Positions 2,856 to 63,020 of a DNA stretch of 64,000 nt are shown piece after piece. The notes below the pieces were generated by a model, which had not been told where the DNA came from, did not search any database, and was given only the letters and a program-made list of their open reading frames with translations. The first letter of the stretch is position 1; each line of letters opens with the position of its first letter. A program made the position numbers and the translations under genes. The stretch is from an uncultured Gammaproteobacteria bacterium (lineage in GTDB: Bacteria > Pseudomonadota > Gammaproteobacteria > JAURND01): positions 27,039 through 91,038 of the forward strand of contig CAVZRN010000001.1 of the NCBI GenBank assembly GCA_963777715.1, read 5' to 3'.

Positions 2856-3025
2856 AAAAAGATTTGACGCAAAGACGCAGAGACGCAAAGAAAAGATTAA
2901 AAAAAGAAAAAAACTTAAAAAAACAAAGACTCAATATAAAAACATAAACAAAATACCAAAAGACAAAAATAATTTTTTTAAATGTTTTATGTTTTTCTCT
3001 GCGTCTTTGCGTCAAATCTTTTTAT
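2856..3025. repeat. family A palindromic element copy 1 (GACGCAGA/GACGCAAA arms, AT-rich core)
   Basis: AAGATTTGACGCAAAGACGCAGAG ... CTCTGCGTCTTTGCGTCAAATCTT inverted arms between convergent purB and lpxA. Confidence 0.9.
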
Positions 3026-3044
3026 TTTAAGTCTTTTTCTTTAA

Positions 3045-3815
3045 TCACCGCGCGATCCCGCGCTTGGCGCGTTGCAACGCTGTAATGAGTGGCCTTAATT
3101 GTGGGCAAGTATCCGACATAGGAAGCAACTGTTCAACCGCATCCTGCAAACGCAAACCCTGACGATATACTAAGCTGTAGGCGCGTCGCAATACACGCAG
3201 AGTTTTTTCATCAAATCCCTGACGTTTCAACCCCACCAGATTTAAACCACGCGGTGTCCCTGGATTGCCAGTTACCAATAGGTAGGGCGGAATATCCTGC
3301 GCTACCTTGGTGCCACTGCCAAAAAAACTGTAGGCGCCCACGGTGACAAATTGATGCACGCCACAGAATGCACTAAAGTTAACAAAATCTTCAACATGCA
3401 CATGCCCCGCCAGGCTAGTGTTATTCGCTAAAATAACCTCATTGCCCACATTACAATCGTGCGCAATATGTGCATATGCCATGATTAGATTATGGTTACC
3501 GACACGAGTTACACCGCCACCTTGTATTGTGCCACGATGTAAGGTGCAAAATTCACGAATTACATTGTTATCACCAATTTCTAAATAAGTCGTTTCTTCC
3601 TTGTATTGGGTATGTTGTGGATCGCCCCCCACTGCTACAAAGGCATCGATGTAATTATTACGCCCGATCTTGGTGTTCTTATTAATTAGCGTATGCGGTC
3701 CGATATGGGTGCCTTCACCAATTTCTACATCGGCGCCCACAATCACATAGGGGGCAATGCTGACACCAGCAGCAATACGCGCACTGGGATCAATAATAGC
3801 GCGGGCATCAATCAC
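3045..3815 (-). CDS. lpxA: acyl-ACP--UDP-N-acetylglucosamine O-acyltransferase
   Basis: Hexapeptide repeats, HIAHDC motif, [15 protein letters not shown] start overlaps the fabZ stop (GTGA). Confidence 0.95.
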
Positions 3816-4252
3816 GGCTTTGGTCTCCGCACATTTAAAATTTCTGCTGAACACGCCAACTCTTTATCAACAAAAGCTTCACACTGAAACTTAAAAATTT
3901 CTCGCTTACTGCGTATCAGTTCTACGTTTAAACGTAACTGATCTCCCGGAACGACCATACGCTTAAAACGTACATTATCGATGCCCGCTAATAAAAATAA
4001 ATTTTCTTCCTTCGATAAGGTAGGATCAGATTTTAGAATAACAATGCCTGCCGCTTGCGCTAATGCTTCTACGATCAACACCCCTGGCATCACCGGTTGC
4101 TCCGGAAAATGTCCAGTAAAAAATGGTTCATTAATCGTAACGTTCTTAATAGCGACCAATGACTTCCATTCTTGAAACTCCAATACCCTATCCACCAATA
4201 AAAATGGATAACGATGTGGCAAGTAATGCAGTAACTCTTGTATGTTCATCAT
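3812..4252 (-). CDS. fabZ: 3-hydroxyacyl-ACP dehydratase
   Basis: [13 protein letters not shown] and [20 protein letters not shown] motifs; operon context. Confidence 0.97.
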
Positions 4253-4283
4253 AAGTTAATTCACCTATAAACGTAATTTGAAA

Positions 4284-5333
4284 CTATAACGCGGAAATAG
4301 TTCTTTCCAGTTTTTTCAAACGACGCGCCATATTATCCAATTGTGAAAAACGAATAATATTTTTACGCCACTCTCGATTCGGCACTGCTGGCATACCCGA
4401 TGAATACACACCGGGTTGCAAAAGAGACGACCCCACCTCTGCCTTCGCAGTTAAAATAACGCCATCGACAATTTCAATATGTGTACCAATTGGACCGCCA
4501 ATCGCCACACCACCACCAATCATACAATGTTTACCTATCTTGGTGCTGCCAGCAATGATAGTTGCAGCTGCAATGGCAGTATGGGCGCCAATGCGCACAT
4601 TATGCGCAACTTGAATCAGGTTATCTAGTTTCACGCCTTGCTCTATGACGGTGTCTTCCAGGGCGCCACGATCAATCGTGGTATTAGCGCCAATCTCCAC
4701 ATCGTCATCAATAACCACCCCGCCCAGTTGTGGAATTTTATGCCAAATTCCTCGGTCATTGACCATACCAAATCCATCGGCGCCAATGACTACACCACTA
4801 TGTACAATAACTCTATTTCCTAGTTTAATGTCGTGATAGAGCGTTACCTGGGCATACAATAAACTATCCGCGCCTATCACGCTGCGATCGCTAATCACAC
4901 AGCCCGGATACACAACGCTATGTTCGCCAATGGTAACATGGTTACCAATTACACAATTAGCGCCAATACGCGCGGTTGCTGCAATGCGACAGTGTTCGCC
5001 AACAACGGTACTCGAATGTATGCCGACCGCTAATGAAGGCGTAGACGCAAACAAGGCGGCCACCTTCGCATACCCCAGGTAGGGATTGTCTAAAATAAGG
5101 CAATTGCCCGTAAAGGCAACAGCGTCACGCGGCGCAAGAATAACTGCAGATGCCTGTGTTTTATCTAAAAATGGCTTAAACTTGGGTATATGTAGAAAAC
5201 TGATTTGACCGAATTGCGCCTTATCCAATGGGGCAATGCCAGTGATTTGACAGGTTGCATCACCATGTAATTCAGCCTGTAGGTACTGAGCTAGTTCTTG
5301 GAGGGAGTGGGAGGGGGTAGGGTATGCACACAT
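4284..5333 (-). CDS. lpxD: UDP-3-O-(3-hydroxyacyl)glucosamine N-acyltransferase
   Basis: Hexapeptide repeats, IGADGFG and [12 protein letters not shown] motifs. Start set at the ATG at 5333 because the longer ORF reads through a repeat. Confidence 0.93.
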
Positions 5334-5368
5334 CTTCGTAGGAAATCTCGTAGCATAGGATGGCGCTG

Positions 5369-5636
5369 TTTTCCTTCTCCCCTTGTGGGAGAAGGTGGCC
5401 GCACCTAGATGTTGGCTGTAACCTTGGCATGGGCAACGTGCCAGACCAACTGATAAATTAGGATAAATTCGTGCGGACGGATGAGGGGATGATGAGGATA
5501 CTGCCCCATCCAATTACCCCTCATCCGTCCGCACAGTTTTAAATAACGTCTTTTAGGCAAGATGTTAATTGCCCTTACACTGTTGTAAGCCTGCATAAAG
5601 GTGCGGCCACCTTCTCCCACAAGGGGAGAAGGAAAA
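5369..5636. repeat. family C composite palindrome (CCTTCTCCCCTTGTGGGAGAAGGTGGCCGCAC outer arms; GTGCGGACGGATGAGGGG inner arms)
   Basis: Perfect ~36-bp terminal inverted repeats (5369-5404 and 5601-5636) and inner inverted pair (5471-5488 and 5517-5534); related copies at 48650 and 53513. Confidence 0.9.
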
Positions 5637-5669
5637 AAATGACACTATCCTGCCACTACCCTTACAAAA

Positions 5670-6218
5670 TTATTTCTTCGGCATCTGTTGGAAAACCTCA
5701 TCCGTAATATTAACTACTTGATTGCTAGAATAAGCGACCGCAGCATCAAGTAATACGACGTCTACATTCTCTTTCGCAGCCACGGTTGCAACCACATCCT
5801 TAATTTGCTTTAACAACGCATCCACGGCCTTATTTTGTGCGGCTTGTGAATCTTGCATTAGGCTTTTTTGCATGTCTTGCAGATCTTTCTGCTGTTGCAT
5901 TAATTTCTGCTCTGCGGCTTGTTTATCCGAAGCTGACATTACTGCGCTGTCACGATTAAATGCCTCTACGTTTTTCTTAAACCCTGCATCGGTATCGGTT
6001 AATTTCTTGCCACGATCACTAAATTGCTTTTTCAAGTCATCGCCAATTTGCTTCATCTGTGGCAATTTTTGCAATAAGTCTTGCATATTGATAACAGCTA
6101 TCTTGGGCGCACCCGATTTAACCATCACACTTGAGTTAGCATCAGCTGCCCATGCTGGTGTTGCAGAAAATAGCATCACCACGCAAAGAGCAATAAAGGT
6201 AAGAATTAGTTTTTTCAT
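5670..6218 (-). CDS. skp: periplasmic chaperone Skp/OmpH
   Basis: Signal peptide MKKLILTFIAL, KIAVINMQ, coiled coil, C-terminal NITDEV; lies between bamA and lpxD. Confidence 0.9.
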   Translation of the reverse strand: MKKLILTFIALCVVMLFSATPAWAADANSSVMVKSGAPKIAVINMQDLLQKLPQMKQIGDDLKKQFSDRGKKLTDTDAGFKKNVEAFNRDSAVMSASDKQAAEQKLMQQQKDLQDMQKSLMQDSQAAQNKAVDALLKQIKDVVATVAAKENVDVVLLDAAVAYSSNQVVNITDEVFQQMPKK

Positions 6219-6248
6219 AATGGCTCCATTTTTTAAGTTAAAAAATAA

Positions 6249-6312
6249 CGTAGGGGCAGGCCTTGTGCCTGCCCGAAACATTCTGCGGGCAGGCACAAGG
6301 CCTGCCCCTACA
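6249..6312. repeat. GTAG-type REP doublet (family B)
   Basis: GTAGGGGCAGGCCTTGTGCCTGCCC ... GGGCAGGCACAAGGCCTGCCCCTAC inverted pair. Confidence 0.9.
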
Positions 6313-6327
6313 TTCAAAATCTGACAG

Positions 6328-8610: not shown

Positions 8611-8760
8611 GATGACTGCAGTGTCCTATAAGTCTGTGGAGTAATGTTAATATCTACTAAAAAATACCACATCCCTATGAGGTAATTTCTTCCGTGCCCA
8701 GGCACATAAACAGCGCCATTATAAGGCAGGGGGAATCTTAGCAAAGGACAACTGGGTTGT

Positions 8761-9375
8761 CTATTCAAAATAATGCGCCCCGCCTTCCTTCAAAAAAGCC
8801 AGCTCTGCCGCTGTCGAAGGACGCCCAAGGATTTCATTGCGATGCGGAAAACGACCATACTGAACAATCAGGTCGCGATGCCGCACTGCATAATCTAAAA
8901 ATCGTTCAAATAGGGCGCGCGTTTCTGGAAACGCAATCGCCGCCAACATTTGATATGCACGCACCGACAGCGCTTGCATTTCCGGACTTTCCGAATGCAT
9001 CAGCGGAAAATAAAAAAATACCCGCTCTATTAAGCTAAGTTGATGATCGTAAGAATGTTCCACACCTTGCAAACATATTTCCAAAGCTTGTTTATCCTGC
9101 TCAAACGCCTGGGGTAAATGGCGGTGAATATGGCGAGAAAATTGATCGAGTAAGATAATCAACGCTAATGAGCCACGCGGAGTTTTACGCCACAGATCGT
9201 GGCTCCCCTGCACGGCGCTTTTATAATCCTGCTGGAACTGTTGTTTAATCTCGCCATCAATCGCTTGATCGCCACTAAACCAAATCCAGGTGCGATGTTC
9301 CGACGGCAACGCCATTCTTTCAGCATTACCAAACCAGTAATGCAAAATAGCCTCTATACGATCAATATTAGTCAT
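8761..9375 (-). CDS. DUF924 family protein
   Basis: ILHYWFG, LALIILLDQFSRHIHR, FFYFPLMHSE and GRFPHRNEILGRPST motifs. Confidence 0.88.
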   Translation of the reverse strand: MTNIDRIEAILHYWFGNAERMALPSEHRTWIWFSGDQAIDGEIKQQFQQDYKSAVQGSHDLWRKTPRGSLALIILLDQFSRHIHRHLPQAFEQDKQALEICLQGVEHSYDHQLSLIERVFFYFPLMHSESPEMQALSVRAYQMLAAIAFPETRALFERFLDYAVRHRDLIVQYGRFPHRNEILGRPSTAAELAFLKEGGAHYFE

Positions 9376-9381
9376 ACGTTA

Positions 9382-11373: not shown

Positions 11374-11406
11374 GATTGATCCTTAAAAATATAAAAGATT
11401 AAATAC

Positions 11407-11545
11407 AAAAGATTTGACGCAGAGACGCAAAGACGCAGAGAAAAGATTAAAAACAAAAAGAAAAAACATTAAAAAATAAAAATATTTTTTTAAATATTTT
11501 ATGTTTTTCTCTGCGTCTTTGCGTCTCTGCGTCAAATTTTTTTAT
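11407..11545. repeat. family A element copy 2
   Basis: TTTGACGCAGAGACGCAAAGACGCAGAGAAAA / TTTTCTCTGCGTCTTTGCGTCTCTGCGTCAAA perfect arms; directly after the thiolase stop. Confidence 0.9.
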
Positions 11546-11547
11546 CT

Positions 11548-43226: not shown

Positions 43227-44058
43227 AGGTTGCCCAAGTTCCTAAACGCTGCCCCATTCCTAATAAGCTCCCCGCCTGCAATTGTGGATCCCAATGTACC
43301 TCGGGCGCAAATAATAACACTACCGTCGACCCTAACTGGAAACGTCCTAATTCATCACCCTTGTTTAGTATGATCTCGGCGCCATCGTACTGCGACCTTT
43401 GCACCTCGCGCGTACGCGAAGGCGCCACCAACCCATTCCAAACCGTTTCAATGCTGGCAACAATCATCGCTCCCACCATAACCACCGCCATCTTACCCAT
43501 TGCTGTATCAAACAACGCCACCACCCGTTCGTTACGCGCAAACACGTTTGGAATAGTCGCGACTGATGCCATGTTCACTGAAAATAATCGCCCAGGAATG
43601 TATACCATCTCGATTAATTTGCCGGTAATCGGCATGTGCACACGATGGTAATCCTTCGGCGCTAAATAAATTGTCGCAAATTGTCCTTGCGCAAATGGCT
43701 GTGCATGTGTCGTATCACCACCTAACAACTCAACCGCGCTAAAATCAAAACCCTTGGCTTGAAAAATACGTCCCGCCTTAATGTCGCCCAGTTGACTGAT
43801 GCAACCATCTGCCGGGGACGCAATATTTTTTTCACCCGCACAAATTAAACGTGCATCCGGTTTAAGTGCGCGGGTAAAAAATGCATTAAACTGTGGGTAA
43901 CGCAGTGGGTCTGGCTCTAGCGCCAGGCGCATATCCACTGAATAGCGCTTGATAAACCATCGAATAAACGCATTCTTCACCCAGGCAATTCGACAGTGCG
44001 CTAATTTCCCAACCCAGTGAGATAGTAAATGTTGTGGTAAGATGTGTTGCCAGATCAT
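43222..44058 (-). CDS. psd: phosphatidylserine decarboxylase
   Basis: FNAFFTR, SPADG, IYLAPKDYHRVH, ARNER, LGST autocleavage motif. Confidence 0.95.
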   Translation of the reverse strand: MIWQHILPQHLLSHWVGKLAHCRIAWVKNAFIRWFIKRYSVDMRLALEPDPLRYPQFNAFFTRALKPDARLICAGEKNIASPADGCISQLGDIKAGRIFQAKGFDFSAVELLGGDTTHAQPFAQGQFATIYLAPKDYHRVHMPITGKLIEMVYIPGRLFSVNMASVATIPNVFARNERVVALFDTAMGKMAVVMVGAMIVASIETVWNGLVAPSRTREVQRSQYDGAEIILNKGDELGRFQLGSTVVLLFAPEVHWDPQLQAGSLLGMGQRLGTWATL

Positions 44059-44071
44059 TGATAAATTCTAT

Positions 44072-45371
44072 ATGTTAAAAAACCCTCGCGCTATCGCTAC
44101 TAGACTCCTTCTCCAAGTCATTGGCGCACACCACTCGTTGACCACCACCCTGGGGTCTGCGTCCCTGCAACACACTCAAGCTAACTTGGTCAAGGAATTG
44201 TGTTTTGGCGTCTGCCGGTGGTATTTCCGCCTAACCACGTTATTGGATTTACTACTCGCGAAACCACTGCGCGCAAAGGATCAAGATATTCAGGTGTTAC
44301 TATTGATTGGTTTGTATCAATTGCTCTACCTGCGCATACCCGAACACGCTGCGGTGCAAGAAACCGTGGCGGCGGCTAAGGCGCTGAAAAAACCCTGGGC
44401 AGCTCAACTAACTAATGGGGTATTACGCACGTTTCTACGCCAACGCGACACCCTGCTACTCTCTGTAGATCATACCCTGATTGGCCGTTATGCGCACCCA
44501 AAATGGCTAACGGATGAAATATATGCTGCCTGGCCAATGCAGGGTGAGGCTATTTTAACCGCAAACAACCGACATCCACCCCTGTGCTTACGGATCAATC
44601 GGTTAAAGATTAACCGAACAGATTATTTACATCAGCTTACCACCCAGGGTATCACCGCCCATCCCCTGGCTAGCCTGGCAGAAACGATTATTGTGGAAAC
44701 GCCACAAGATATTACCCAATTGCCTGGTTATCAAGCAGGACATTTTTTCGTACAAGACAGTAGCGCTCAGCTTGCTGCGGGCTTGTTGGAGCTGGGCCGG
44801 GCCAACGCGTCCTAGACGCGTGCGCCGCACCCGGCGGAAAAACCACCCATATCCTGGAAACGGAACCGCAACTGGGCGCATTGATCGCACTGGATAAAGA
44901 CCGCAAGCGCCTGGCCAGGGTGACAGAAAACGTGCTACGCCTGGGAATCGACGCACCGCTCTCCTGTATCGCTGCAGATGCGTCGGATACGGCTATCTGG
45001 TGGGACAAGCAACCATTCGATCGTATATTACTGGATGCTCCCTGCTCTGCTATCGGCGTAATCCGCCGCCATCCTGATATCAAGGTGTTGCGTCAACCAG
45101 CCGATATAATCACCTTACCTTCACTGCAATATGCCTTGTTATGCGCCCTATGGCCAACCCTTAAACCAGGTGGAATCTTGTTATATGCAACCTGTTCAAT
45201 CCTGCCTGGAGAAAATCAGCAGGTCATCGCACGTTTCTTACAGCAACATGCTGATGCTAAAGAAAAACCGATTATAGCAACTTGGGGGATAGATACATCC
45301 CCGGTAAGCAATTGCTGCCTGGGGAAGCTAATCAAGATGGGTTTTTCTATGCACGATTGATAAAAGATTAA
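44072..45371 (+). CDS. rsmB: 16S rRNA m5C967 methyltransferase (frameshifts near 44810 and 45300)
   Basis: NusB-like N-terminus, [17 protein letters not shown] (after frameshift), [16 protein letters not shown]-terminal DGFFYARL. Confidence 0.92.
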
Positions 45372-45488
45372 AAGATTTTGACGCAGAGACGCAGAGAAAA
45401 ACATAAAACATGAAAAGATTTAAATAAAAAATCAAAAAATATTTTTTTATTTGTTTTTTTAATCTTTTCTTTGCGTCAAATCTTTTTT
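45371..45488. repeat. family A element copy 3 (reverse orientation)
   Basis: TTTTGACGCAGAGACGCAGAGAAAAACATAAAA ... TTTTAATCTTTTCTTTGCGTCAAATCTT. Confidence 0.88.
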
Positions 45489-45496
45489 CTTTATGC

Positions 45497-47048: not shown

Positions 47049-47085
47049 TATAATTAATCCCTATTTTAAAAAAACATAAAAAAAT

Positions 47086-47334
47086 AAAAGATTTGACGCA
47101 GAGAAAAGATTACAACAAAAGAAAAGATTAAAAATAAAAACAAAAACGTAAATAAAACATCAAAAGTTCAAAAAACGGCTCTATTGTCCCCTAGGAGCGC
47201 GGGCAGCTTGCCCGCATTTAGCCCATGGCTGAATATGGGCGGGCAAGCTGCCCGCGCTCCCAGAAGCTTTGTGCCATTGAATTGAATGTTTTATGTTTTT
47301 CTCTGCGTCTCTGCGTCTCTGCGTCAAATCTTTT
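47086..47334. repeat. family A element copy 4 with a nested GGAGCGCGGGCAGCTTGCCCGC palindrome (47194-47260)
   Basis: Family A arms flank a second, GC-rich inverted pair. Confidence 0.88.
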
Positions 47335-47338
47335 AACT

Positions 47339-48603
47339 TTAGTTAATTACATTATACACCGGGAACTGCTTACAAATCTGCAATGCCTGTCGTTTCACTG
47401 TAGCGATGACCTGGGGATTTTTATGATCGTCTAATACATCGCATACCCAATTTGCTAATACTTCCGTCTCTTTTTCTTTAAATCCCCGCGTAGTGATCGC
47501 TGGCGTCCCCAAACGCAATCCACTGGTAATAAATGGTGAACGTGGATCATTCGGCACCGCGTTTTTATTCACAGTAATATTCGCTTGACCCAGGGCTGCT
47601 TCCGCATCCTTACCGGTCATTTCATAACCAGATAAATCCACTAAGAACAAATGATTATCGGTTCCACCAGATACCAATTGATAGCCACGACGCATCATCG
47701 TTTGCGCCATTTTACGCGAATTGGCTAACGTTTGCTGTTGATATTGTTTAAATTCTGGCTGCAATGCCTCCTTGAACGCCACTGCCTTTGCGGCAATCAC
47801 ATGCATCAATGGGCCACCCTGCAACCCAGGGAATACCGCGGAATTCAGCTTTTTTTCAATGTCGGGATTAGCCTTCGCCAAAATAAACCCACTGCGCGGA
47901 CCACGTAACGTTTTATGGGTAGTTGATGTGGTCACATCGGCAATTTGCACTGGGGAAGGGTAAATACCCGCAGCAATTAAACCAGCCACATGCGCCATAT
48001 CCACCATTAGATAAGCGCCCACACTATCTGCGATGTCACGAAATTTTTGCCAATCCACCACGCGTGAATAGGCAGAAAATCCTGCTATAATCATTTACGT
48101 GGCTTGTGTTCTTGCGCCAATGCAGCCAACTGGTCGTAATCAATTTCTCCGGTATCAGGGCGTATACCATACTGCACCGCATGGTAGGTTTTACCGGAAA
48201 AGTTTACCGAAGCGCCATGAGTCAAATGCCCACCATGCGCTAAACTCATACCCAATACCGTATCACCTGGCTGCAATAAGGCCATAAATGCTGCAGCGTT
48301 TGCCTGGGAGCCGGAATGCGGCTGCACATTAGCGTAATCCGCGCCAAACAATTGTTTAACGCGATCGATCGCCAATTGCTCAGCAATATCCACATATTCA
48401 CACCCTCCATAATAACGCTTACCAGGATAACCTTCCGCATATTTATTCGTCAGCACCGAACCCTGCGCCTCCAATACCAGTGGGCTGACGTAATTTTCAG
48501 ATGCGATGAGTTCGATATGCTCTTCTTGTCGGCGCATTTCGCAGCGAAGCGCCTGCCAAAGTTCTGGATCGTAGGTGGCAATGGTTTGCTTATTATCGTA
48601 CAT
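47339..48603 (-). CDS. glyA: serine hydroxymethyltransferase (frameshift near 48095)
   Basis: [39 protein letters not shown]. Confidence 0.95.
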
Positions 48604-48677: not shown

Positions 48678-48693
48678 CAATGCCATGGCTTAA

Positions 48694-49359: not shown

Positions 49360-49375
49360 TGCAGATCTCCCGCTG

Positions 49376-53492: not shown

Positions 53493-53512
53493 TTAACGTT
53501 TATTACCTTTGT

Positions 53513-53741
53513 CCCTTCTCCCCTTGTGGGAGAAGGTGGCCGCACCATGACGTTGGCTGTAAATTTGATTTTAGCAATGTGCGGTACTAATGGATAAATC
53601 TTGAAAAATCTGTGCGGACGGATGAGGGGTAGATAAGGTTGGCAGTGAAGAATGGCTTACCCCTCACCCGCCACACGACGTGTGTCGACCTCTCCCACAA
53701 GGGGAGAGGTGATTAATGTATTGACTGCGTCAATAATCTAA
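53513..53741. repeat. family C composite palindrome with 30-bp tail
   Basis: Same arms as 5369-5636; tail shared with 48621-48660. Confidence 0.87.
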
Positions 53742-53756
53742 TTAAGGAAAATAAAT

Positions 53757-54500: not shown

Positions 54501-54640
54501 TGCTGTTTAACGAGCTTGCGAGAGCTTAAATGACCCTGGATCCCGGATATTAAGTACTGCTAAGTTCGCAAGCTCACTAAGCAGTACTAAATTCCGGGAC
54601 GACTACGTCGCTTAGTATCCGGGACCTGGTTGGGATGGCA
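54481..54640. repeat. family E palindromic element (GTCATCCCGG...TCCGGGACGAC)
   Basis: CGTCATCCCGG, GATCCCGGAT, AGTACTGCT/AGCAGTACT hairpin, TCCGGGACGAC; overlaps the last codons of the upstream ORF. Confidence 0.7.
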
Positions 54641-54696
54641 TTTACTGTTAGAAAACTATGCACCCCAAAGTCACAATATAGGATAAACAAACAGTC

Positions 54697-54957
54697 ATGA
54701 AGAAAGGATTATCTCTATCACTAAAAATAATATTAGTTTATTGGTTGATCTTATTTTTAAGCGGCAAGGCGGTATTTGTCTACCGCAGCGGACCACAGAT
54801 CTTACCCGGCAATGAGCACGGCATCCTTACATGCACTTATATGGCATGGTCAGGGCTGATGTCACGAGATTATTGGTACTCTGCTGATGGCAGCACCGGT
54901 ATGCGAGTGTGCCCTAACATGCAGGATGTGGATAACTTAAAGGTAGGTACTACGTAG
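54697..54957 (+). CDS. small hypothetical exported/membrane protein
   Basis: 86 aa, N-terminal hydrophobic helix, two Cys; its stop is supplied by a GTAG REP (54954-54977). Confidence 0.5.
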   Translation: MKKGLSLSLKIILVYWLILFLSGKAVFVYRSGPQILPGNEHGILTCTYMAWSGLMSRDYWYSADGSTGMRVCPNMQDVDNLKVGTT

Positions 54958-54987
54958 GCGTAGGCCCCTGTGCCTACAACTGTTATA

Positions 54988-55683
54988 TTAAGTTCCCGCC
55001 AGATACAATTCCTTAATCCGTGGATCACCACGCAAGACTGCCGCATCCCCCTCCAAACCAAGCTTGCCATTTTCCAATACATAGGCACGTGTCGCAATCG
55101 TCAATGCTAAATGTACATTCTGCTCAACCAACAAAATGGCCACACCCTCAGCATGAATTTTTTTTAACGTCAGAAACACCTGCTCCATCAGCTTTGGCGC
55201 AAGCCCCATCGAAGGCTCATCTAATAATAACAATTTTGGCTTGCGCAATAACGCGCGTGCAATCGCCAACATCTGCTGCTCACCACCCGATAATGTACCG
55301 GCCATTTGCTTACTACGTTGTTTTAATTGTGGAAATAAATCATATGCGGCGGCGTCATCACCATCACCCGCTTGCATACCCCACATCGCTAAACGCAAAT
55401 TTTCTGCTACAGTCAAACTACTAAAAATACCGCGACCTTCTGGAACATGCGCAATACCTGACACAATACGCCGATACGGGGCAACATGCGCCAAATCCTG
55501 ATCGTTATAGGTAATATTGCCTTGATACGGCAGCAATCCTGAAATAGCACGCAAGGTTGATGTCTTACCCGCCCCATTACTGCCCAATAATGTCACAATT
55601 TCATTATGCGCCACTTGCAGAGAAATGCCGTGCAAGGCCGGAATGCCATCATAATTTACGCGTAGATCGGTAATCGTTAACAT
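54988..55683 (-). CDS. livF: branched-chain amino acid ABC transporter ATP-binding protein
   Basis: GSNGAGKTS, HVPEGRGIF, LSGGEQQMLAIAR, LLLDEPSMGLAP. Confidence 0.92.
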   Translation of the reverse strand: MLTITDLRVNYDGIPALHGISLQVAHNEIVTLLGSNGAGKTSTLRAISGLLPYQGNITYNDQDLAHVAPYRRIVSGIAHVPEGRGIFSSLTVAENLRLAMWGMQAGDGDDAAAYDLFPQLKQRSKQMAGTLSGGEQQMLAIARALLRKPKLLLLDEPSMGLAPKLMEQVFLTLKKIHAEGVAILLVEQNVHLALTIATRAYVLENGKLGLEGDAAVLRGDPRIKELYLAGT

Positions 55684-55699
55684 GCTTATACCCATTGTA

Positions 55700-55857
55700 C
55701 CTTGAGATGCGAGATTTTAAGCCCCAATGAGTTAGTAGATTTGAACGTCCTGATTGAAAAAAAGCGCAGGAATACTAGACGTCTTTCGAGCTTTTTTGAA
55801 TGAAGAACGTTCATAGATGCTGACTCAGTGGGAGCTTAAAAATCGTATCTTGAGGTA
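55700..55857. repeat. family D palindromic element overlapping the livG 3' end
   Basis: CTTGAGATGCGAGATTTTAAGCCCCAATGAGTTAG...GAACGTCC versus the reverse of GAACGTTC...CTGACTCAGTGGGAGCTTAAAAATCGTATCTTGA. Confidence 0.78.
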
Positions 55858-56617
55858 TGATGGGTATATTACCCAAATAAGATTCAATCACCATCGCATT
55901 TTCACGAATCGCCTGCGGCTCCCCCATCGCAATGGTCTTACCAAAATTTAATACCAGCATACGCTGACACAATCCCATCACAAATGGCATCTGATGATCA
56001 ATCAACAAAATCGCTAGATTTCTTTCCTGTTGAATCTCGCGGATTAATTGCGCCATCGCATGCGCTTCGCTGGGATTCATCCCACAAGCGGGTTCATCTA
56101 GTAACAATACTTTTGGTCGTGTCGCCAATGCGCGCGCAACTTCCAAACGCCGTTGTAAACCATAGGGCAACTCGCGCGCACGCTGATCAGCGTATTGCAC
56201 TAAATTCAAGCGTTGTAATAATTGATAGGCTTCATCGATAACTAGTTGCTCTGCCTGCCGAAATGATACGCCACGCAACATGGCGCTCATCACACCATAA
56301 CGACCGCTAATAGCAATCCTGACATTATCTAGCACTGATAATGCTTTAAATAGTCGAATGTTTTGGAAGGTGCGCGCAATACCACAACGCGTGATACGGA
56401 AAACAGATAACCCCGCCAGCGGCTGTTGGTTTAAATAAATTTTGCCTTGTTGCACGGGATAGATGCCGCATAGCACGTTAAATACCGTGGTTTTACCCGC
56501 ACCATTAGGTCCGATAATGCCAACGATCTCGCCAGCATTAATATCGAGATTAAAGTTTTCTATCGCATGCAAGCCACCGAATGCGTGGGATAAGTCTTGG
56601 ATAGCCAGTAAAGTCAT
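55811..56617 (-). CDS. livG: branched-chain amino acid ABC transporter ATP-binding protein
   Basis: GPNGAGKTT, ARTFQNIRLF, LPYGLQRRLE, LLLDEPACG, ESYLG. Confidence 0.92.
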   Translation of the reverse strand: MTLLAIQDLSHAFGGLHAIENFNLDINAGEIVGIIGPNGAGKTTVFNVLCGIYPVQQGKIYLNQQPLAGLSVFRITRCGIARTFQNIRLFKALSVLDNVRIAISGRYGVMSAMLRGVSFRQAEQLVIDEAYQLLQRLNLVQYADQRARELPYGLQRRLEVARALATRPKVLLLDEPACGMNPSEAHAMAQLIREIQQERNLAILLIDHQMPFVMGLCQRMLVLNFGKTIAMGEPQAIRENAMVIESYLGNIPIIPQDTIFKLPLSQHL

Positions 56618-56644
56618 AAAATTAATTTAAAAGATAAAATATTT

Positions 56645-56818
56645 AAAGATTTGACGCAGAGACGCAAAGACGCAATGAGAAAAACATAAAAGATAAAACA
56701 TAAAAAATTTAAAAAAATATTTTTATTTATTTTTTATATATTTTATTTGTATTTTTTGATCTTTTCTTTTTTTAATCTTTTCCCTGCGTCTTTGCGTCTC
56801 TGCGTCAAATTTTTTTTA
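56645..56818. repeat. family A element copy 5 (reverse orientation); contains the livM stop
   Basis: AAGATTTGACGCAGAGACGCAAAGACGCAATGAG ... CCCTGCGTCTTTGCGTCTCTGCGTCAAATT. Confidence 0.9.
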
Positions 56819-57728
56819 TTTCAGGGCGGAAAACCGACCATTCACGCAATCCCATAATTCCCGAGGGTCGAAAAATAATCAGCAAAATCAACAGCACCGG
56901 CATGATAATCATGCGCCACTCGGCAAATGGTCGCAGCACCTCTAATAAAATAGTGTACACTGAGCCACCTAACAGTGAGCCGGCCAACGAACCTGCGCCC
57001 CCCAAATAAACCATCACTAACATATCAGTGGATTTGGCTAGATCAAACATGCCAGGATTAATGTATTGCAATAGATGCGCATACAACGCGCCTGCAATAC
57101 CAGTAAAAAACGCTGAAATACTAAATGCGAGAATTTTAGTGCTGCGCGTATTGACACCCATGAGTTTTGCCGCCATTTCGTCTTCACGAATCGCTAACAT
57201 ATTGCGACCAAAGCGCGAATATACTAAATTGCGCATTAATAACAAGGTCACCACTACCCAAAAAAATACCCAGGGTAGTGTGGTTAACCGACTGATGCCT
57301 GATAAACCACGTGCGCCACCCACAACATCTAAATTTTCCAATATCGATTTTACGATCATCAAGAACGCCAAGGTCAAGATCGCCAAATAATCACCGCGGG
57401 TTTTAAACGATAACACTGCAATAATTACACCCGCACACCCCGCTAATAAACCACCGCCAATTGTAGCCATAATAAAACTATTGTCAGGTAATAGACGCAT
57501 GCTCAAAAAAGCGGACACATAGGCGCCAATTGACATAAACCCGGCGTGACCGACAGAAAACTCACCCATGTAGCCATTCACCAAGTTAAGGCTTAATGTC
57601 AGAATGATATTAATGCCTATTGCCATAAGGATTTGCTGATAGTAATTATTCAGCCATTGAAATTGTGGGATTAGCCAACTAAACGCTCCCAATATGAGAA
57701 CAACAGCGATGGTAAAAGAAGTGCGCAT
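56805..57728 (-). CDS. livM: branched-chain amino acid ABC transporter permease
   Basis: SLNLVNGYMGEFSVGHAGF, RGDYLAILTL, SRFGR..AIREDE. Confidence 0.9.
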   Translation of the reverse strand: MRTSFTIAVVLILGAFSWLIPQFQWLNNYYQQILMAIGINIILTLSLNLVNGYMGEFSVGHAGFMSIGAYVSAFLSMRLLPDNSFIMATIGGGLLAGCAGVIIAVLSFKTRGDYLAILTLAFLMIVKSILENLDVVGGARGLSGISRLTTLPWVFFWVVVTLLLMRNLVYSRFGRNMLAIREDEMAAKLMGVNTRSTKILAFSISAFFTGIAGALYAHLLQYINPGMFDLAKSTDMLVMVYLGGAGSLAGSLLGGSVYTILLEVLRPFAEWRMIIMPVLLILLIIFRPSGIMGLREWSVFRPEIKKI

Positions 57729-57750
57729 AAATAACCCTTAAAAACAAAAA

Positions 57751-57899
57751 TATTTGACGCAGAGACGCAGAGAAAATATTAAAAACAAAAAAATAAAATA
57801 TTAAAAGAACAAAGAAAAGACTAAAGATTAAAAAAATAATTTTTTTATGTTTTATCTTTTGTGTTTTCCTCTGCGTCTCTGCGTCAAGTCTTTTAATCT
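57751..57899. repeat. family A element copy 6
   Basis: TATTTGACGCAGAGACGCAGAGAAAA ... TTTTCCTCTGCGTCTCTGCGTCAAGTC. Confidence 0.9.
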
Positions 57900-58775
57900 T
57901 TAAATTTTCTCCACGGCGGTTTGGCCCAGCAGCCCACTCGGGCGGAATAATAAAAATACCACTAATAAACTAAATGCCGCAAAATCGCGGTATGTCGATG
58001 GGAAAAATACCACCATATAAATTTCCACTGCACCTAGAATAAAGCCGCCTAACATAGCGCCACGAATATTGCCAATACCACCAATAACCGCCGAGACAAA
58101 CGCCTTCCAACCAATACTGATCCCCATATAGGGATCAATGACTGGATACGACTGTGCATATAACACACCCGCAGCGCCTGCTAATGCGCCACTAATTGCA
58201 AAGGTATACATAATGACATAATTCAGTGGTACGCCGATGAGTGTCAGGTCTTGGCTGTTGGTGGCAATTGCACGTTGCGCTAATCCCAATAAGGTATGCC
58301 TCGAACCCCAATCCAATAACAGCATGAGCACTAATGCGATGACAATAATCAACAATTGCAGGGATGATAATGTAACGCCGCCAAACTCCCAGCTTATATT
58401 TTGTACCAACATGGGTACAAATTGCGGATATGGGTTCTTCAGCAACACGACATGTTCTAATACTAACCCACATGCCAACGCAGTAATGAGTATCGAAACC
58501 TTGGGCGCCTTACGCAACGGTTTATAGGCTAACTGCTCAATGAGTACTGCAATCACTGCGCTACCCAGCATACCGATAGCTAAGGTCGGCCAGAAGCCCA
58601 GGTGCAAGCTAATGGCGCCAAATAGCCCGACAAACGCGCCTGCCATGAATACATCTCCATGCGCGAAGTTAAATAAGCGCAAGATGCCATACACTAGGCT
58701 ATAACCTAATGCGATTAGCGCATAGATGCTGCCTAGTTGGATGGCGTTGAGTGTTTGTTGGAGGATATACGTCAT
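57900..58775 (-). CDS. livH: branched-chain amino acid ABC transporter permease
   Basis: GSIYALIALGYSLVYG..NFAHG, AFVSAVIGGIGN..GAMLGG. Confidence 0.92.
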   Translation of the reverse strand: MTYILQQTLNAIQLGSIYALIALGYSLVYGILRLFNFAHGDVFMAGAFVGLFGAISLHLGFWPTLAIGMLGSAVIAVLIEQLAYKPLRKAPKVSILITALACGLVLEHVVLLKNPYPQFVPMLVQNISWEFGGVTLSSLQLLIIVIALVLMLLLDWGSRHTLLGLAQRAIATNSQDLTLIGVPLNYVIMYTFAISGALAGAAGVLYAQSYPVIDPYMGISIGWKAFVSAVIGGIGNIRGAMLGGFILGAVEIYMVVFFPSTYRDFAAFSLLVVFLLFRPSGLLGQTAVEKI

Positions 58776-59935
58776 GGCTTCGCGTTGGTGACCCAAACAA
58801 ACTGATTATCCTTCACTTGCATGATAACCGCACTCTTGCTGGGATCGCCGGAATTAGCGGGAAATTTAATCGTGCCGGTTACCCCCTCAAATGCCGGTAA
58901 CGTTGCAATACTATCGCGCACCGCCTGACGATCTAACTCACCTGCTGCAGCAATCGCCTTAAATAGAATCTGATACGCATCATACGTTAACGCTGCAACA
59001 TCGTCCGGTTTTACACCATAGATTTGCTGATATTTTTTCACGAAGTCATGTGTAGTCTTGGTACTGGCATCGGACGAATAATGATTGGCGAAATAGGCGC
59101 CTTCTACTGCACCGTTGGATAGTTTAATTAATTCTGGACTACTCCAGGCATCACTACCTAACAATGCCACATGTAGGCCCAAGCGCTTGGCTTGCTGTGC
59201 GATTAGCGGCACATCATTGTAGTATGCTGGCAAGAATAGCACATCTGGATTTGCTGCCTTAATCTTGGTCAATTGCGCCGAAAAATCTTTATCATTAGTA
59301 GTGTAAGTTTCAAACGCAACAATCTTCCCACCCAACTTTGTGAAATCTTCACGGAAAATAGCTGCTTGTGTGCTGGGAGCTTCTGAAGCCACATCATATA
59401 GCACTGCAGCAGTTTTATAATGCAAATTATCGCGTGCGAATCGTGCTAATACGGTTGACTCAAATGGATCAGTAAAGCAGGCACGAAATACATAATGCTT
59501 TGGTTGGCCAGTTTTGGCGTTTAATGTGGTTTTTGGATCAGTAGACCATGGCGTAATTAATAGCGTCTTCCCGCTCTCAGCAACTTCGGATGCAGGGATA
59601 GCGCCGGAACTGGAATTAGGACCCACAATCGCCAGTACATTATCTTGGTCAATCAGCTTGTGTGCTGCCGCCGCCGCTTGATCGCCCTTGGCGGCATTAT
59701 CTTCCACCGTCAATATTACCGGCATCTTCTTGCCATTAATGGCTATCCCACCTTGGTCATTTATTTCCTTCACCGCCATATCTGCCGCATTTTTACTGGA
59801 AGCGCCAACAGCCGGCATACTGCCAGTCAATTCTAAAATAGTGCCGATGCGAATCTCATCCGCATTTTTATGTGATTGATTACAGCCAGCCACTATTAAA
59901 CACGATGTCAATACAATGAGAATTTTTTTTAACAT
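58772..59935 (-). CDS. branched-chain amino acid ABC transporter substrate-binding lipoprotein (LivK/LivJ-like)
   Basis: Lipobox IVAGC, YVFRACFTD, DKDFSAQLTKIK..NPD, FEGVTG. Confidence 0.88.
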   Translation of the reverse strand: MLKKILIVLTSCLIVAGCNQSHKNADEIRIGTILELTGSMPAVGASSKNAADMAVKEINDQGGIAINGKKMPVILTVEDNAAKGDQAAAAAHKLIDQDNVLAIVGPNSSSGAIPASEVAESGKTLLITPWSTDPKTTLNAKTGQPKHYVFRACFTDPFESTVLARFARDNLHYKTAAVLYDVASEAPSTQAAIFREDFTKLGGKIVAFETYTTNDKDFSAQLTKIKAANPDVLFLPAYYNDVPLIAQQAKRLGLHVALLGSDAWSSPELIKLSNGAVEGAYFANHYSSDASTKTTHDFVKKYQQIYGVKPDDVAALTYDAYQILFKAIAAAGELDRQAVRDSIATLPAFEGVTGTIKFPANSGDPSKSAVIMQVKDNQFVWVTNAKP

Positions 59936-59984
59936 AGCTTTCCCTTTTTTTGTAAAGGCTTTGGTGAAATAGTCAAAGTGTATC

Positions 59985-61043
59985 TCACCTAACCAACTTA
60001 AACAATACCACATCAACCAATGCAAAAACTACCAACGGCACTGCGGCGGATAAAAACGGGGGGATTTGATATAATAAACTAAAGGGCCCAAGAAATTCAT
60101 TCAACGTATAAAATCCAAAACCAATAACCACACCAACCAAGATACGAAATCCCATAGTAGTCGTACGTAATGGACCAAAAATAAATGGCACTGCTAAACC
60201 AATCATCACCAATGCGACAAATGGCTGTAAAATACGTTTCCAAAAGGCAAACTCGTACGGCTTGGTATACAAACCACTCTTGCCCAAATAGTGAATGTAA
60301 CTATGTAATTCTAACAACGATGCTTGATCTGGATGAATACTCGCAATACCAACAAAATCTGGATCTAGCGCAATCGGCCACACTTGCTGGGCGATATGCG
60401 TTGTGGTAATGCCATCAGCGCTAATAATACTTTGAGTAATATCCGAAAATACCCACTTACCTTGCTGATAATCGCCAGTTTTTGCCATGCTGATGGAATA
60501 CAGTTGACGTTGATGAAATTGGTAACGCAAGATTGATTTCAATTTTCCATCCGGTGATGCTTGATCGATATGGACAAAATTTTCACCATCGCGTATCCAC
60601 AAGCCATCAGAGTCCTGCGCTGCTGCACTTCCCTGGGTCTGTGCCTTGTATCCTTGTGAAAAATGGTTTAACGATGGGCTGAATCCTTCTCCCACAATGG
60701 TAATCACCACTAACATGCCAAGCGTGGCGCGCAGCACCCAACCAGCAATTTCTAGCTTGGATACACCCGCTGCCTGCATCACAATCAATTCACTCTGCGC
60801 AGCTAATTTTCCCAAACCAATTAAACAACCCAACAATGCAGCGGCAGGAAATAGTGGATACATATCACCCGGTAGTGATGACAATACAACCATAAATGCC
60901 TGTTGAATACCATAACCATGATTATTAAGATCATCCAACTGACTGATAAATTTGATAAACATCTCGATACCGGCAATCACCAAGACTACTATGACAGTAG
61001 TCGCAATGACAGTATTACGTACGTGACGATATAAAATCTTCAT
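59985..61043 (-). CDS. lptG: LPS export ABC transporter permease LptG
   Basis: LGKLAAQSELIVMQAAGVS, GLWIRDG, GPLRTTTMGFR. Confidence 0.93.
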   Translation of the reverse strand: MKILYRHVRNTVIATTVIVVLVIAGIEMFIKFISQLDDLNNHGYGIQQAFMVVLSSLPGDMYPLFPAAALLGCLIGLGKLAAQSELIVMQAAGVSKLEIAGWVLRATLGMLVVITIVGEGFSPSLNHFSQGYKAQTQGSAAAQDSDGLWIRDGENFVHIDQASPDGKLKSILRYQFHQRQLYSISMAKTGDYQQGKWVFSDITQSIISADGITTTHIAQQVWPIALDPDFVGIASIHPDQASLLELHSYIHYLGKSGLYTKPYEFAFWKRILQPFVALVMIGLAVPFIFGPLRTTTMGFRILVGVVIGFGFYTLNEFLGPFSLLYQIPPFLSAAVPLVVFALVDVVLFKLVR

Positions 61044-62146
61044 AACTTTTTACTCCCAAACCGTCGCCACCCCACAAAGCGCCATAGTAATAGGCACGCG
61101 ATTAATAGCATTAACACATGCACCCACCAAATCCCAATACCAGAAGAGACTTGACCTTTGTGTAGCCATGCCCTACTAACGAACAATAAATCCACATACA
61201 GAATATATAATAAAAATGCCGGCACTAATTGTGCATAACGTCCCTGCCGCGCATCCACACGACTAAGTGAAACGGCTAATAACGCTAAAATCAGGGTGGA
61301 TAATGGTAATGCGATGCGCCATTGTAGTTCTGCCTGCAACTGATGATGGCCATGGCGTTGCTGCCATAGTTGTAGCGTTGGTAATGTTTCTACACGATTA
61401 TCCGCCGGAATCGCATCACGTTGAATGCGTACGCCATAGGTCTTATATTGAACTGTACTAAAATCCGATTCACCTGGCATTCCCATGTAACGATAACCAT
61501 CTTCCAATACCAGAAAACGATCACGTGTTAATGCATCCACTACTTGATGCCCTTCATCGGCAATCACGATATCCCAGGCTGAACCACCCGATTGCAAGGT
61601 TTTATCCGCACGCTGTGCAACAAATACATCTTGTAAATTCTTATGATCGCGCGATAACCCTTGTGCGTAAAACACTAATTTACCTGCTCGTAACGGCACG
61701 AACTGATCAGGAGAAATACGTTCCAACGGCGAAGAGGCAGCCGCATCGATTAAAATTTGTCGCTTATAGCTTTCCACCTCTGGTTGCAACCACATCGTCA
61801 ACACAGCTACCAACAAACAAACCACTGCGGAAAACATTAGCGTCATGCCAATGAGTTGCGCCTTACTTAGACCACATGACCACAATACAATCATTTCGCG
61901 ATCACTATACAAACGCCCATACGCCACTAATATACCAATATACAGTCCAAGCGGCAGCAACAACGGTAATAGTAATGGCATTTGCAACGAAACAATTTGC
62001 ATTACCGTACGCAATGGCATGACGCCAGCGGCAGCCTGAGTTAAATAATGTACAAACTGATTACTAATGAGAAGCAACAGTAATACTATCGTACTCGCAA
62101 GCAGCGTACCGTAAACTTCTTTGACCAAATAACGTAAAATAATCAC
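61040..62146 (-). CDS. lptF: LPS export ABC transporter permease LptF
   Basis: [32 protein letters not shown] start overlaps the ung stop. Confidence 0.93.
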
Positions 62147-62814
62147 AGGCGCCAATCAATCTCCGGTTGCCCCATCTGTCGCAACAACTGATTTGTCTTA
62201 GAAAAATGTTTACAACCTAAAAAACCACGATGCGCCGATAACGGCGAAGGATGGGTTGCTTTTAATACATGGTGACGCGTAGTGTCGATAAACTGACCCT
62301 TACGCTGGGCAGGAGTGCCCCATAATAAAAATATCAAGCCTTGTTTTTCATTATTTAATAATCGAACGATTTTATCAGTAAATGTTTCCCACCCTATATT
62401 CGCATGTGATTGTGGTTTACCTGCTTCAACCGTTAATACCGAATTTAACAGCAATACCCCTTGTTTCGCCCAATGTTCTAAACAACCATGTGTAGGCATA
62501 GGAATACCCAGATCACTGTGCAACTCGCGAAAAATATTTTGTAGGGATGGCGGCGGGGCTACACCAGGCGCTACTGAAAAACATAGCCCATGTGCTTGAC
62601 CCTGACCATGATAAGGATCTTGCCCCAAAATAACCACACGCACCTGATCAAACGGTGTGTATTTTAATGCGTTGAATACATCAGCGGGCTTGGGATAAAT
62701 TTTCTTACCCAGCTCTCGTTCGGTTTTTAAAAAATTCAGCAGCGCTTGAAAATACGTTAATTGTCTCTCGCCTGCCAGCAACGACTGCCAAGTCTTTATA
62801 GTCTCTTCCTGCAT
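62143..62814 (-). CDS. ung: uracil-DNA glycosylase
   Basis: [30 protein letters not shown]. Confidence 0.97.
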
Positions 62815-62842
62815 AATAAAGTCCCTCGTGAGTTAAAAAAAC

Positions 62843-63020
62843 AAAAGATTTGACGCAGAGACGCAAAGACGCAGAGAAAAGATTAAAAACTAAAAATAAA
62901 ATATTAAAAAACAAAGAAAAAACTAAAGATTAAAAAATAAAAAAATAATTTTTTTATCTTTTATGTTTTCCTCTGCGTCTTTGCGTCTTTGCGTCAAATC
63001 TTTTAATCTTTTTTCTTTTT
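62843..63020. repeat. family A element copy 7
   Basis: AAGATTTGACGCAGAGACGCAAAGACGCAGAGAAAAGATT ... CTCTGCGTCTTTGCGTCTTTGCGTCAAATCTT. Confidence 0.9.

Follow-up and report, generated by a model that had tools for sequence, protein, structure and literature searches.

A tandem-octamer foldback repeat at gene ends of an uncultured gammaproteobacterium and the association of its arm type with GxxExxY nuclease genes

Introduction

What are the seven AT-rich palindromes that stand at gene ends within a 64,000-nucleotide stretch of DNA from an uncultured Gammaproteobacteria bacterium, and how did they get there? This stretch, referred to as "the window" in this study, is region C1:27039-91038 of G000, a metagenome-assembled genome (MAG) of 2.05 Mb in 25 contigs, with 44% GC and 67% completeness. 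The initial annotation of the window had described seven palindromic copies with arms of tandem 8-mers around hypervariable cores, and had taken them for a non-autonomous mobile unit resembling repetitive extragenic palindromes (REPs). All seven were found where it had placed them, and the motif GACGCARA occurs 36 times in the window as compared to 4.1 +/- 2.0 times in dinucleotide-preserving shuffles, none of which reached 36. The octamer element, as we call it here, does not code for protein, is repeated many times, forms hairpins and behaves like mobile DNA. Its arm type (NCRCARAG) belongs to a phylum-spanning family that brackets genes for GxxExxY proteins, which are PD-(D/E)xK nucleases. 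Most likely, the copies in G000 are gene-less, non-autonomous derivatives of a foldback-type mobile cassette linked to these nucleases.

Results

The element is a long palindrome present in about 75 copies

Searching the whole genome for the arms yielded 66 complete copies (64 after dropping two in a duplicated contig end) plus about 10 half or solo arms, for a total of about 75 copies in G000. When all arm ends were aligned, a long imperfect palindrome emerged, made of outer A-rich words, 1 to 4 tandem octamers, conserved inner ends and an AT-rich core. The arm consensus is TTGAC(GCARAGAC)n, and 265 of the 287 octamers genome-wide are either GACGCAGA or GACGCAAA. The commonest form is three octamers per arm, ordered G-A-G. 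Thus, the TTGAC cap given by the initial annotation stands, while its range of one to three octamers has to be extended to four. Outside of TTGAC, about 14 bp are conserved (AAAAnnTAAAAGAT), and conservation fades out towards about position -20. The inner end is GAAAAGATTAAAA on one side and TTTTATGTTTTYCTC on the other, the latter being GAAAAACATAAAA when read inward; these words bear out the polarity noted earlier, with copies 3 and 5 of the window flipped. The conserved, non-repetitive outer and inner ends are common to about 128 arm ends.

Without a nested insert, the core measures 53 to 124 bp. Its median GC content is 11%, while the remaining intergenic DNA of this genome has 41% and its coding DNA 45%, so that the AT-richness, correctly recognized before, is a property of the element and not of non-coding DNA here. 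The core is a low-complexity tract made of the same words as the outer flanks, and such loops were not seen in the other genomes inspected. The predicted single-strand fold is one long hairpin, in which the outer words, arms and inner ends are paired and an A-rich excess on one side is left unpaired. Folding of copies 1, 2 and 7 gave free energies between -48 and -73 kcal/mol and z-scores between -9 and -14, which agrees with the long hairpin that had been proposed. This unpaired A-rich excess is the true asymmetry of the core; the "A-then-T" order noted earlier is not, because any hairpin with an A-rich 5' half reads so on both strands.

Relatives lack the element, and it has spread together with its cargo

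Forty relatives were searched, including two genomes of the same genus and all eight other genomes of the GTDB order, which has nine in all. The arm-plus-inner-end pattern has 142 matches in G000 and is absent from 39 of the 40 relatives; the remaining one, a member of another family, has two overlapping matches at a single site that is not this element. Empty sites, which the initial annotation had suggested looking for, were found at two junctions. The glyA/nrdR spacer is 3 and 10 bp long in two family-level relatives versus about 300 bp here (element plus nested repeat), and the thiolase/fadB spacer lacks the element both in one relative, where it is an unrelated 64 bp, and in a same-genus genome, where it holds a small TM2-type gene. 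Just these two junctions could be compared, as the same-genus genomes are fragmented and only 66-76% identical to G000 at the DNA level. The small gene at the same-genus junction (G002:C147:3600-4260, locus L176) encodes a membrane protein of the zinc-ribbon plus TM2 type, and represents a different insertion at the junction that holds copy 2 here.

A composite subfamily provides further evidence. One foreign GC-rich palindrome is nested at an identical position in at least eight copies, copy 4 of the window among them, and at least seven of these have in common the junction of GCCA with TTGAATTAAATCTTTTATG, also given as GCCA|TTGAATTAAATC. Free copies of the GC-rich palindrome are followed by unrelated sequence, without the junction of GCCA with TTGAATTAAATC. 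Therefore, the arm-bounded unit and its cargo have spread as one. Identical ends (AAAAGCTTTGAC plus three octamers) surround several unrelated cores of mixed composition in another gammaproteobacterial MAG, and this marks the arms as the functional ends. The best reading of these results is that the family entered the G000 lineage after its split from the sampled relatives, and then multiplied to its present copy number.

Copies lie at stop codons, which they often supply

Based on open reading frame (ORF) calls in G000, 48 copies lie between co-directional genes, 12 between convergent genes and 5 between divergent genes (about 10 expected), with one overlapping an ORF call; such spacers make up 68%, 16% and 16%, respectively, of all spacers genome-wide. 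The element is thus high-copy, extragenic and found mainly downstream of genes (60 of 66 in co-directional or convergent spacers). The arm starts at a median of 12 nt past the upstream stop and ends about 31 nt ahead of the downstream start, so the stop-codon adjacency described for the window holds throughout the genome. The gap between stop and arm is made wholly of the element's own A-rich words. All stops located 5 to 13 nt from the arm are TAA, coinciding with the TAA of the element word GATTAAAAGAT, and four stops are a TGA within TTGAC, including that of livM (56805-56807), which had been seen to lie inside an arm. TAA accounts for 45 of 65 adjacent stops, as compared to 51% of stops genome-wide. 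Since the thiolase and GlyA C-termini end within 1 or 2 residues of those in relatives, the element is located right at the stop codon and in many cases provides it. Copies abut stop codons exactly, and between convergent genes they do so at both ends.

With respect to transcription, copies show no significant bias in orientation (17 versus 30, p = 0.08). Target-site duplications, another feature suggested at the outset, were not found: the lengths of direct repeats at the element ends match those of a permuted control, with none beyond chance. Copies tend to cluster, with 16 of 49 spacings below 3 kb versus 8.9 expected. None lies in the 413 kb of contigs C9-C11, where about 13 were expected (Poisson P about 3e-6). 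These contigs could represent DNA acquired more recently, an independent replicon, or sequence that the element avoids. They share insertion sequence (IS) copies with the rest of the genome (C10 and C11 with other contigs); C10 also shares the GC-rich repeats with it, and C9 overlaps C12.

Cores are inherited but diverge faster than arms

Only 22 of the 287 octamers show a change outside of the A/G alternation at position 7, corresponding to about 1% per base. In contrast, cores differ by 17-31%, with many small indels. Pairwise core identity has a median of 0.69 (0.62 for a composition-matched control), while the median for nearest neighbours is 0.83, reaching 0.95-0.97 at unlinked loci; in one group of three unlinked loci, the cores are 92-95% identical. 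The cores are therefore inherited with the element, in subfamilies, and are not freshly shuffled from a set of words, as had been thought. The statement that no two cores are the same is valid within the window, but these cores are homologous.

The two arms of one element resemble each other more than arms taken at random: 68 of 93 octamers match between left and right arms, as compared to 52 +/- 3.8 with permuted right arms (0 of 5000 permutations reached 68). Rare octamer variants are mirrored on both arms (GAg/GAg, AGA/AGA, AAA/AAA). Both results point to a hairpin constraint or to templated repair.

Contigs C7 and C12 have in common an overlap of 10 kb that is 98% identical. An element in the best-conserved 2.6 kb of this overlap shows 10 differences in 139 bp, 2 of them in an arm and the rest being core indels and substitutions, with no difference in the 200 bp that flank it to the left and right; another element of the 10-kb overlap shows a single difference. 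Hence, the earlier proposal that cores diversify faster than arms holds at the family level, and direct evidence of rapid change comes from one allelic pair only. Two contig-end overlaps at 98-99% identity are present in the assembly (C7:1-10019 with C12:1-10016, and C9:138999-145686 with C12:38575-45262), so that the MAG contains either two haplotypes or a recent duplication. The differences between such overlapping copies are strongly clustered.

The arms belong to a family that brackets GxxExxY genes in many phyla

Searches with an arm 22-mer and then with a tri-octamer pattern recovered more than 117 loci, found in Acidobacteriota, Planctomycetota, Chloroflexota, Verrucomicrobiota, Gemmatimonadota, Bacteroidota, Proteobacteria, Actinomycetota and others, with a few isolates among them. 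(A backwards-pattern control is invalid for this motif because GACGCAGA reversed is a cyclic shift of itself.) Most of the loci inspected are short hairpins consisting of TTTGAC(GCAGAGNC)n, a loop and the mirror arm, often located directly past a stop codon. These hairpins are multi-copy in their genomes, and some have inner stems that recall the inner ends of the element in G000 (GAGAA..ACAT..ATGT..TTCTC). Pure (GACGCAGA)n arrays also occur in other genomes. Among 2.9 million viral contigs, 4 match the arm pattern. A short octamer-arm hairpin of the same type was observed on a predicted viral contig (IMGVR_UViG_3300014202_000917; L278:5700-5810).

Clustering of the genes beside 90 arm-bearing loci of other phyla revealed no shared neighbour; the link to a nuclease emerged only from genes lying between the arms. 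In a Dehalococcoidia MAG, exact-type arms enclose a 125-residue gene matching TIGR04256 and PF13366 at about 1e-40. A decayed GxxExxY copy lies between such arms in a Bacteroidales MAG, a GxxExxY gene lies between GACGCAGA/GACGCTGA arms in a Bryobacteraceae MAG, and arms of this type flank GxxExxY genes in Caldilineaceae, too. Exact GACGCAGA-type arrays flank GxxExxY genes at loci L103 and L180, and close variants do so at L109 and L187. Four of five arm-bearing genomes of other phyla have 1 to 8 GxxExxY genes, several of which are located between octamer arrays. In a sample of 400 genomes of the phylum, 43 of 59 arm-bearing genomes have GxxExxY, versus 37 of 341 without arms; outside of the one family that dominates the sample, the approximate counts are 5 of 9 versus about 10 of about 260. 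One genome of the sample combines 117 arm matches with a single GxxExxY gene, and G000 combines 111 with none. Approached from the other side, 79 GxxExxY loci (many phyla, some archaea) were examined within 150 nt of the gene: inverted NCRCNRAG arrays are present on both sides at 43 loci and on at least one side at 62, whereas control segments 285-450 nt away gave 0 and 3 (one side), respectively. GxxExxY had been named by the initial annotation as one of the nucleases to look for, and in other phyla the arm type does bracket its genes.

The GxxExxY protein could be modelled with confidence (pLDDT, or predicted local distance difference test, of 92) and bears a weak likeness to restriction-endonuclease-like folds, for example Cas4 and lambda exonuclease (template modelling score about 0.5). 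GxxExxY proteins keep an invariant D...E-x-K motif (D66, E76 and K78). When the nuclease alignment was used as a profile against the PDB, there was no match and no relative with a solved structure.

G000 has no mobiliser with matching arms in its assembly

PF13366 and TIGR04256 gave no match in G000 or in any of the nine genomes of its order, and PF05635 gave none in G000 or its order. A six-frame profile search of G000 for GxxExxY remnants (E up to 10) returned nothing better than E = 2.1. As the genome is 67% complete, these searches do not prove that the gene is absent from the organism. The other kind of mobiliser that had been envisaged, a RAYT (REP-associated tyrosine transposase), has a single candidate, the sole Y1_Tnp (PF01797) gene at C21:98258-98638; it is flanked by GTAG-type GC-rich REPs and not by octamer arms.

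The element was also compared with known classes of repeats. It has no GTAG tag, and CGTC is present only within the paired octamers. CGTC-tagged REPs were considered, as every octamer contains CGTC; published ones combine stems of 8-9 bp and loops of 4-5 nt with a CCA tail and a tag that is left unpaired (PMC3733652), and the octamer element differs from them in stem, loop, tag and tail structure. It does not appear to be a miniature inverted-repeat transposable element (MITE) of a resident IS, since the ends of the six IS families in G000 are unrelated to the arms, nor a DDE-type MITE, since no fixed-length target-site duplication exceeds the permuted control. An intervening sequence (IVS) of 23S rRNA can be dismissed because all copies lie in spacers between protein-coding genes. 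As for intrinsic terminators, a consensus scan of window positions 55500-63500 called none at copies 5 to 7, and the loops of the element measure 50-120 nt, as compared to 3-8 nt in such terminators, where a short GC-rich stem leads directly into a U tract; a consensus scan likewise gave no support for TTGAC being a promoter -35 box. Rfam 15 detected only two tRNAs in the window, and gave generic, sub-threshold miRNA-hairpin matches only for the short versions from other phyla. The arms also resemble MetJ metboxes (tandem 8-bp AGACGTCT) and Type III restriction sites (CAGAG), but both readings were set aside as inconsistent with a distribution across phyla.

No publication containing the arm sequence was found in full-text searches, and GxxExxY was met there in passing mentions only, in three papers. 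The earlier remark that this design matches no described family is thus upheld as regards the literature, but the design is not an isolated one because the arm type spans phyla. Similarly, the view of the element as a non-autonomous mobile or REP-like unit is sound in that it is non-coding, multi-copy, hairpin-forming and mobile in behaviour, but it fails the REP/RAYT and classical MITE tests.

One IS interrupts the element itself. A 1.7-kb IS (487-aa transposase ORF, three copies) is inserted in the core of an octamer element, the halves of which, with matching GgG arms, are located at C22:51709-53473 and C7:31784-33591. Their position on different contigs suggests an assembly join across IS copies.

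Discussion

The octamer element is a real, well-defined, non-autonomous foldback repeat. We consider it probable that its copies derive from a GxxExxY-linked mobile cassette and have no gene of their own. The unit is bounded by inverted arrays of 1 to 4 tandem GACGCARA together with the outer conserved sequence of about 14 bp, and whatever lies between the arms travels along, which here is an AT-rich, slippage-prone loop, sometimes with nested foreign repeats. Copies have landed in short spacers at the 3' ends of genes, can point either way and show no target duplication; insertion presumably proceeds by a chemistry other than a DDE staggered cut. A GxxExxY nuclease acting in trans may recognize the repeated octamers; it is the most likely mobiliser because the arms are of the same tandem-octamer type as those around its genes. 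The mobiliser may have been lost, leaving the copies orphaned, or may be encoded in the unassembled third of the genome.

Several points weigh against this derivation. No GxxExxY gene or remnant is present in the assembled 2.05 Mb, and none is present in the genomes of the order. No target-site duplication occurs beyond chance, and the ends of the element are fuzzy rather than sharp. GxxExxY proteins are not known to move anything, and their genes could be cargo that prefers such hairpins. The co-occurrence of arms and gene in whole genomes is inflated by relatedness since one family dominates the sample of 400, in which another 16 arm-bearing genomes have no GxxExxY gene. Finally, the median core identity implies that the burst may be old and the copies fossil.

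Could the hairpins instead serve the host, being kept for transcript ends, for protection of mRNA 3' ends or for differential expression within operons, with retention by selection outweighing spread? The shortage of copies in divergent spacers (5 of 65, with about 10 expected, versus 48 in co-directional ones), arms conserved at about 99% per base outside of the A/G position next to cores that have diverged, covariation of the two arms of each copy, and T-rich tracts past the stem on both strands would all be consistent with this notion. However, none of the 40 relatives, including both same-genus genomes, has the element, so it is not a conserved regulatory device, and the same operon junctions function without it there. 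The lack of orientation bias, the negative terminator scan and the presence of copies inside operons (livHMG, thiolase-fadJ), where strong termination would be harmful, speak against it as well. Avoidance of promoter regions is equally expected from purifying selection on a parasite. We therefore regard a host-serving structure as unlikely.

Two further explanations concern origin. A classical REP, REPIN (a hairpin of paired inverted REPs) or MITE moved by a conventional transposase, either a single RAYT-like Y1 enzyme or an IS-encoded DDE enzyme, with no GxxExxY link, might be suspected, as the genome has one Y1_Tnp gene (C21:98258-98638) and several IS families, and high-copy, extragenic inverted-repeat units are typical of REPINs and MITEs. 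We judge this quite improbable because the Y1 gene has GTAG-type GC-rich REPs at its flanks, the element carries neither GTAG nor CGTC as an unpaired tag, its stem and loop dimensions fall outside those of the published CGTC families, none of the six IS families has arm-like ends, and no target-site duplication exceeds chance. Alternatively, slippage and fold-back synthesis could have built octamer arrays independently at many gene ends, with no mobile ancestor. Although the octamer number varies from 1 to 4, AT words recur outside as well as inside the arms, and pure (GACGCAGA)n arrays exist in other genomes, such an origin is scarcely credible: about 128 arm ends have the same non-repetitive outer and inner ends, cores are 95-97% identical at unlinked loci, and the composite subfamily has an identical insert and junction at 8 or more loci. 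These shared composite junctions bring a local origin close to refuted.

The octamer element may be compared with the better-known systems that it resembles. With REPs, bacterial interspersed mosaic elements (BIMEs) and REPINs, which are associated with RAYTs in E. coli and Pseudomonas (GTAG- and CGTC-tagged families of Di Nocera et al. 2013, PMC3733652), it shares being a high-copy, non-coding, extragenic palindrome that lies mostly after genes, in co-directional or convergent spacers. Larger hairpins from inverted partners, restriction to a species and attraction of nested insertions are further likenesses. It differs by lacking an unpaired tag and an 8-13-bp stem with a short loop, having instead variable tandem-octamer arms and a loop of 50-120 bp. 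The IVS of 23S rRNA, such as the 428-nt IVS of Coxiella burnetii (PMC4990558), is likewise a selfish insert with long terminal inverted repeats (a transcript stem of about 28 bp), an arm-loop-arm layout, an optional small ORF and a sporadic distribution, which in both cases suggests horizontal transfer. However, IVSs reside in helices 25 and 45 of 23S rRNA, and their stem is a proven RNase III substrate, whereas the octamer element resides in mRNA spacers and its cutting is only predicted. Moreover, the IVS ORF encodes the four-helix-bundle protein S23p, while the gene-bearing relatives of the octamer arm type examined here encode GxxExxY.

The octamer-armed GxxExxY (TIGR04256/PF13366) cassettes agree with the element in arm unit (NCRCARAG, with exact GACGCAGA arrays among them), in their location just past stop codons and in the arm-loop-arm layout; the G000 copies differ in being gene-less, in residing in an assembly without the gene, and in having an extremely AT-rich tract as the loop. 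A published description of such cassettes was not found in full-text searches. The Foldback (FB) transposons of Drosophila also have inverted arms of short tandem repeats, the number of which varies between copies and between arms, with a loop that is variable or carries cargo; being eukaryotic and kilobase-sized, they are analogous in design and no more. In Neisseria, the Correia/NEMIS elements are non-autonomous units of about 100-150 bp with terminal inverted repeats, which are co-transcribed and whose stems are expected to be nuclease substrates; De Gregorio et al. (2002-2003) reportedly found these inverted repeats in mRNAs to be cut by RNase III. Correia elements end in well-defined inverted repeats of 26 bp and are accompanied by a TA duplication, in contrast to the repeated-octamer arms, fuzzy ends and lack of duplication seen here.

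When transcribed, the octamer element would fold into a 25-40 bp stem within operon transcripts (livHMG, thiolase-fadJ, glyA-nrdR and rnc-era-ung), and these stems are probably RNase III substrates, as the enzyme cuts perfect stems of such length. The gene for this enzyme, rnc, is present in G000 just upstream of era. In Coxiella, the 28-bp inverted-repeat stem of the IVS is cut mid-stem by RNase III (PMC4990558).

A broader proposal is possible, but we put it forward only tentatively and would not be surprised to see it fail. Octamer hairpins and the GxxExxY nuclease might together constitute an undescribed, phylum-spanning class of mobile elements in which: a small PD-(D/E)xK nuclease replaces the transposase; this nuclease recognizes its own arms, perhaps as an extruded hairpin or cruciform; and insertion takes place at gene 3' ends without target duplication. 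G000 would then represent a burst of about 75 gene-less copies, with the arms kept intact and the loops decaying. If the link is true, a mobile cassette that occurs in a dozen or more phyla shows itself most often through these hairpins, and its enzyme has no tested function, no solved structure as judged by sequence search, and almost no literature. G000 is a natural experiment, with its many copies, an enzyme gene not found in the assembly, arms about 99% conserved, loops diverged by 17-31% and housekeeping genes whose stops are supplied by the element. The element provides substrates for studying nuclease recognition, splitting of operon mRNAs by RNase III and exact insertion at gene ends. 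For annotation, such elements can account for odd intergenic DNA, altered C-termini and contig breaks in MAGs.

Copies in the window and neighbouring features

The genes flanking the seven copies were confirmed as purB/lpxA, FadJ-like/thiolase, rsmB/usp, glyA/nrdR-like, livG/livM/livH and ung/era, in agreement with the names given earlier. Copy 1 (2856..3044; arms at 2864-2889 and 2995-3015, with 3 and 2 octamers) lies between the convergent purB and lpxA genes, reaching from the purB stop (2853-2855) to the lpxA stop (3045-3047). Copy 2 (11374..11547; arms at 11414-11440 and 11509-11535, 3 octamers each) lies between the stop of the thiolase (FadI-like) gene and the start of the FadJ/B-like gene, both on the minus strand, in the spacer that lacks an element in relatives. 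Copy 3 (45361..45496; arm to arm 45378-45479, with 2 and 1 octamers), which is inverted according to its inner-end words, separates rsmB (C-terminal ORF) from a convergent universal-stress-protein gene. Here rsmB is split on the plus strand (44042-45360) into ORFs at 44042-44815 and 44881-45360, matching model positions 10-249 and 278-405.

Copy 4 (47070..47338; arm to arm 47093-47327, with 1 and 3 octamers) occupies the minus-strand spacer from the glyA stop to the nrdR-like start and is the member of the composite subfamily mentioned above. The neighbouring glyA gene (47339-48603, minus strand) is split into two ORFs, 48091-48603 and 47339-48094, which overlap by 4 bases and correspond, in the model of serine hydroxymethyltransferase, to positions 1-158 and 159-404. 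The split is a frameshift that reflects either decay of the gene or an error of assembly. The core of copy 4 houses a nested GC-rich palindromic repeat of another family (47177..47276; TGGCAC...GCCA type). This palindrome (TGGCAC...CCCTGGGAGCGCGGGCAGC...GCCA) has about 35 ends genome-wide, roughly a third of them within octamer elements, and some of its copies hold a further GTAG-type REP at their centre. Unlike the octamer element, it is also multi-copy in the family-level relative G007.

The remaining three copies are associated with minus-strand genes. Copy 5 (56618..56808; arm to arm 56651-56808) runs from the livM stop to the livG start and is inverted, with the livM TGA within its arm-terminal TTGAC. 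Copy 6 (57729..57899; arm to arm 57754-57887, with 2 octamers in each arm) runs from the livH stop to the livM start. Copy 7 (62815..63020; arm to arm 62850-62997, with 3 octamers in each arm) runs from the era stop to the ung start, downstream of rnc-era.

Two other short repeat families are present in the window, at 12913-13000 and 5365-5401. Both have dozens of matches at 83-98% identity in G002 (same genus) and in G006 and G007 (family level), and, being multi-copy in relatives, they contrast with the lineage-restricted octamer element. Elsewhere in the genome, a region of about 16 kb (C5:30400-46630) consists of tandem repeats with a period of about 320 bp and 74-83% identity, presumably a giant repetitive gene.

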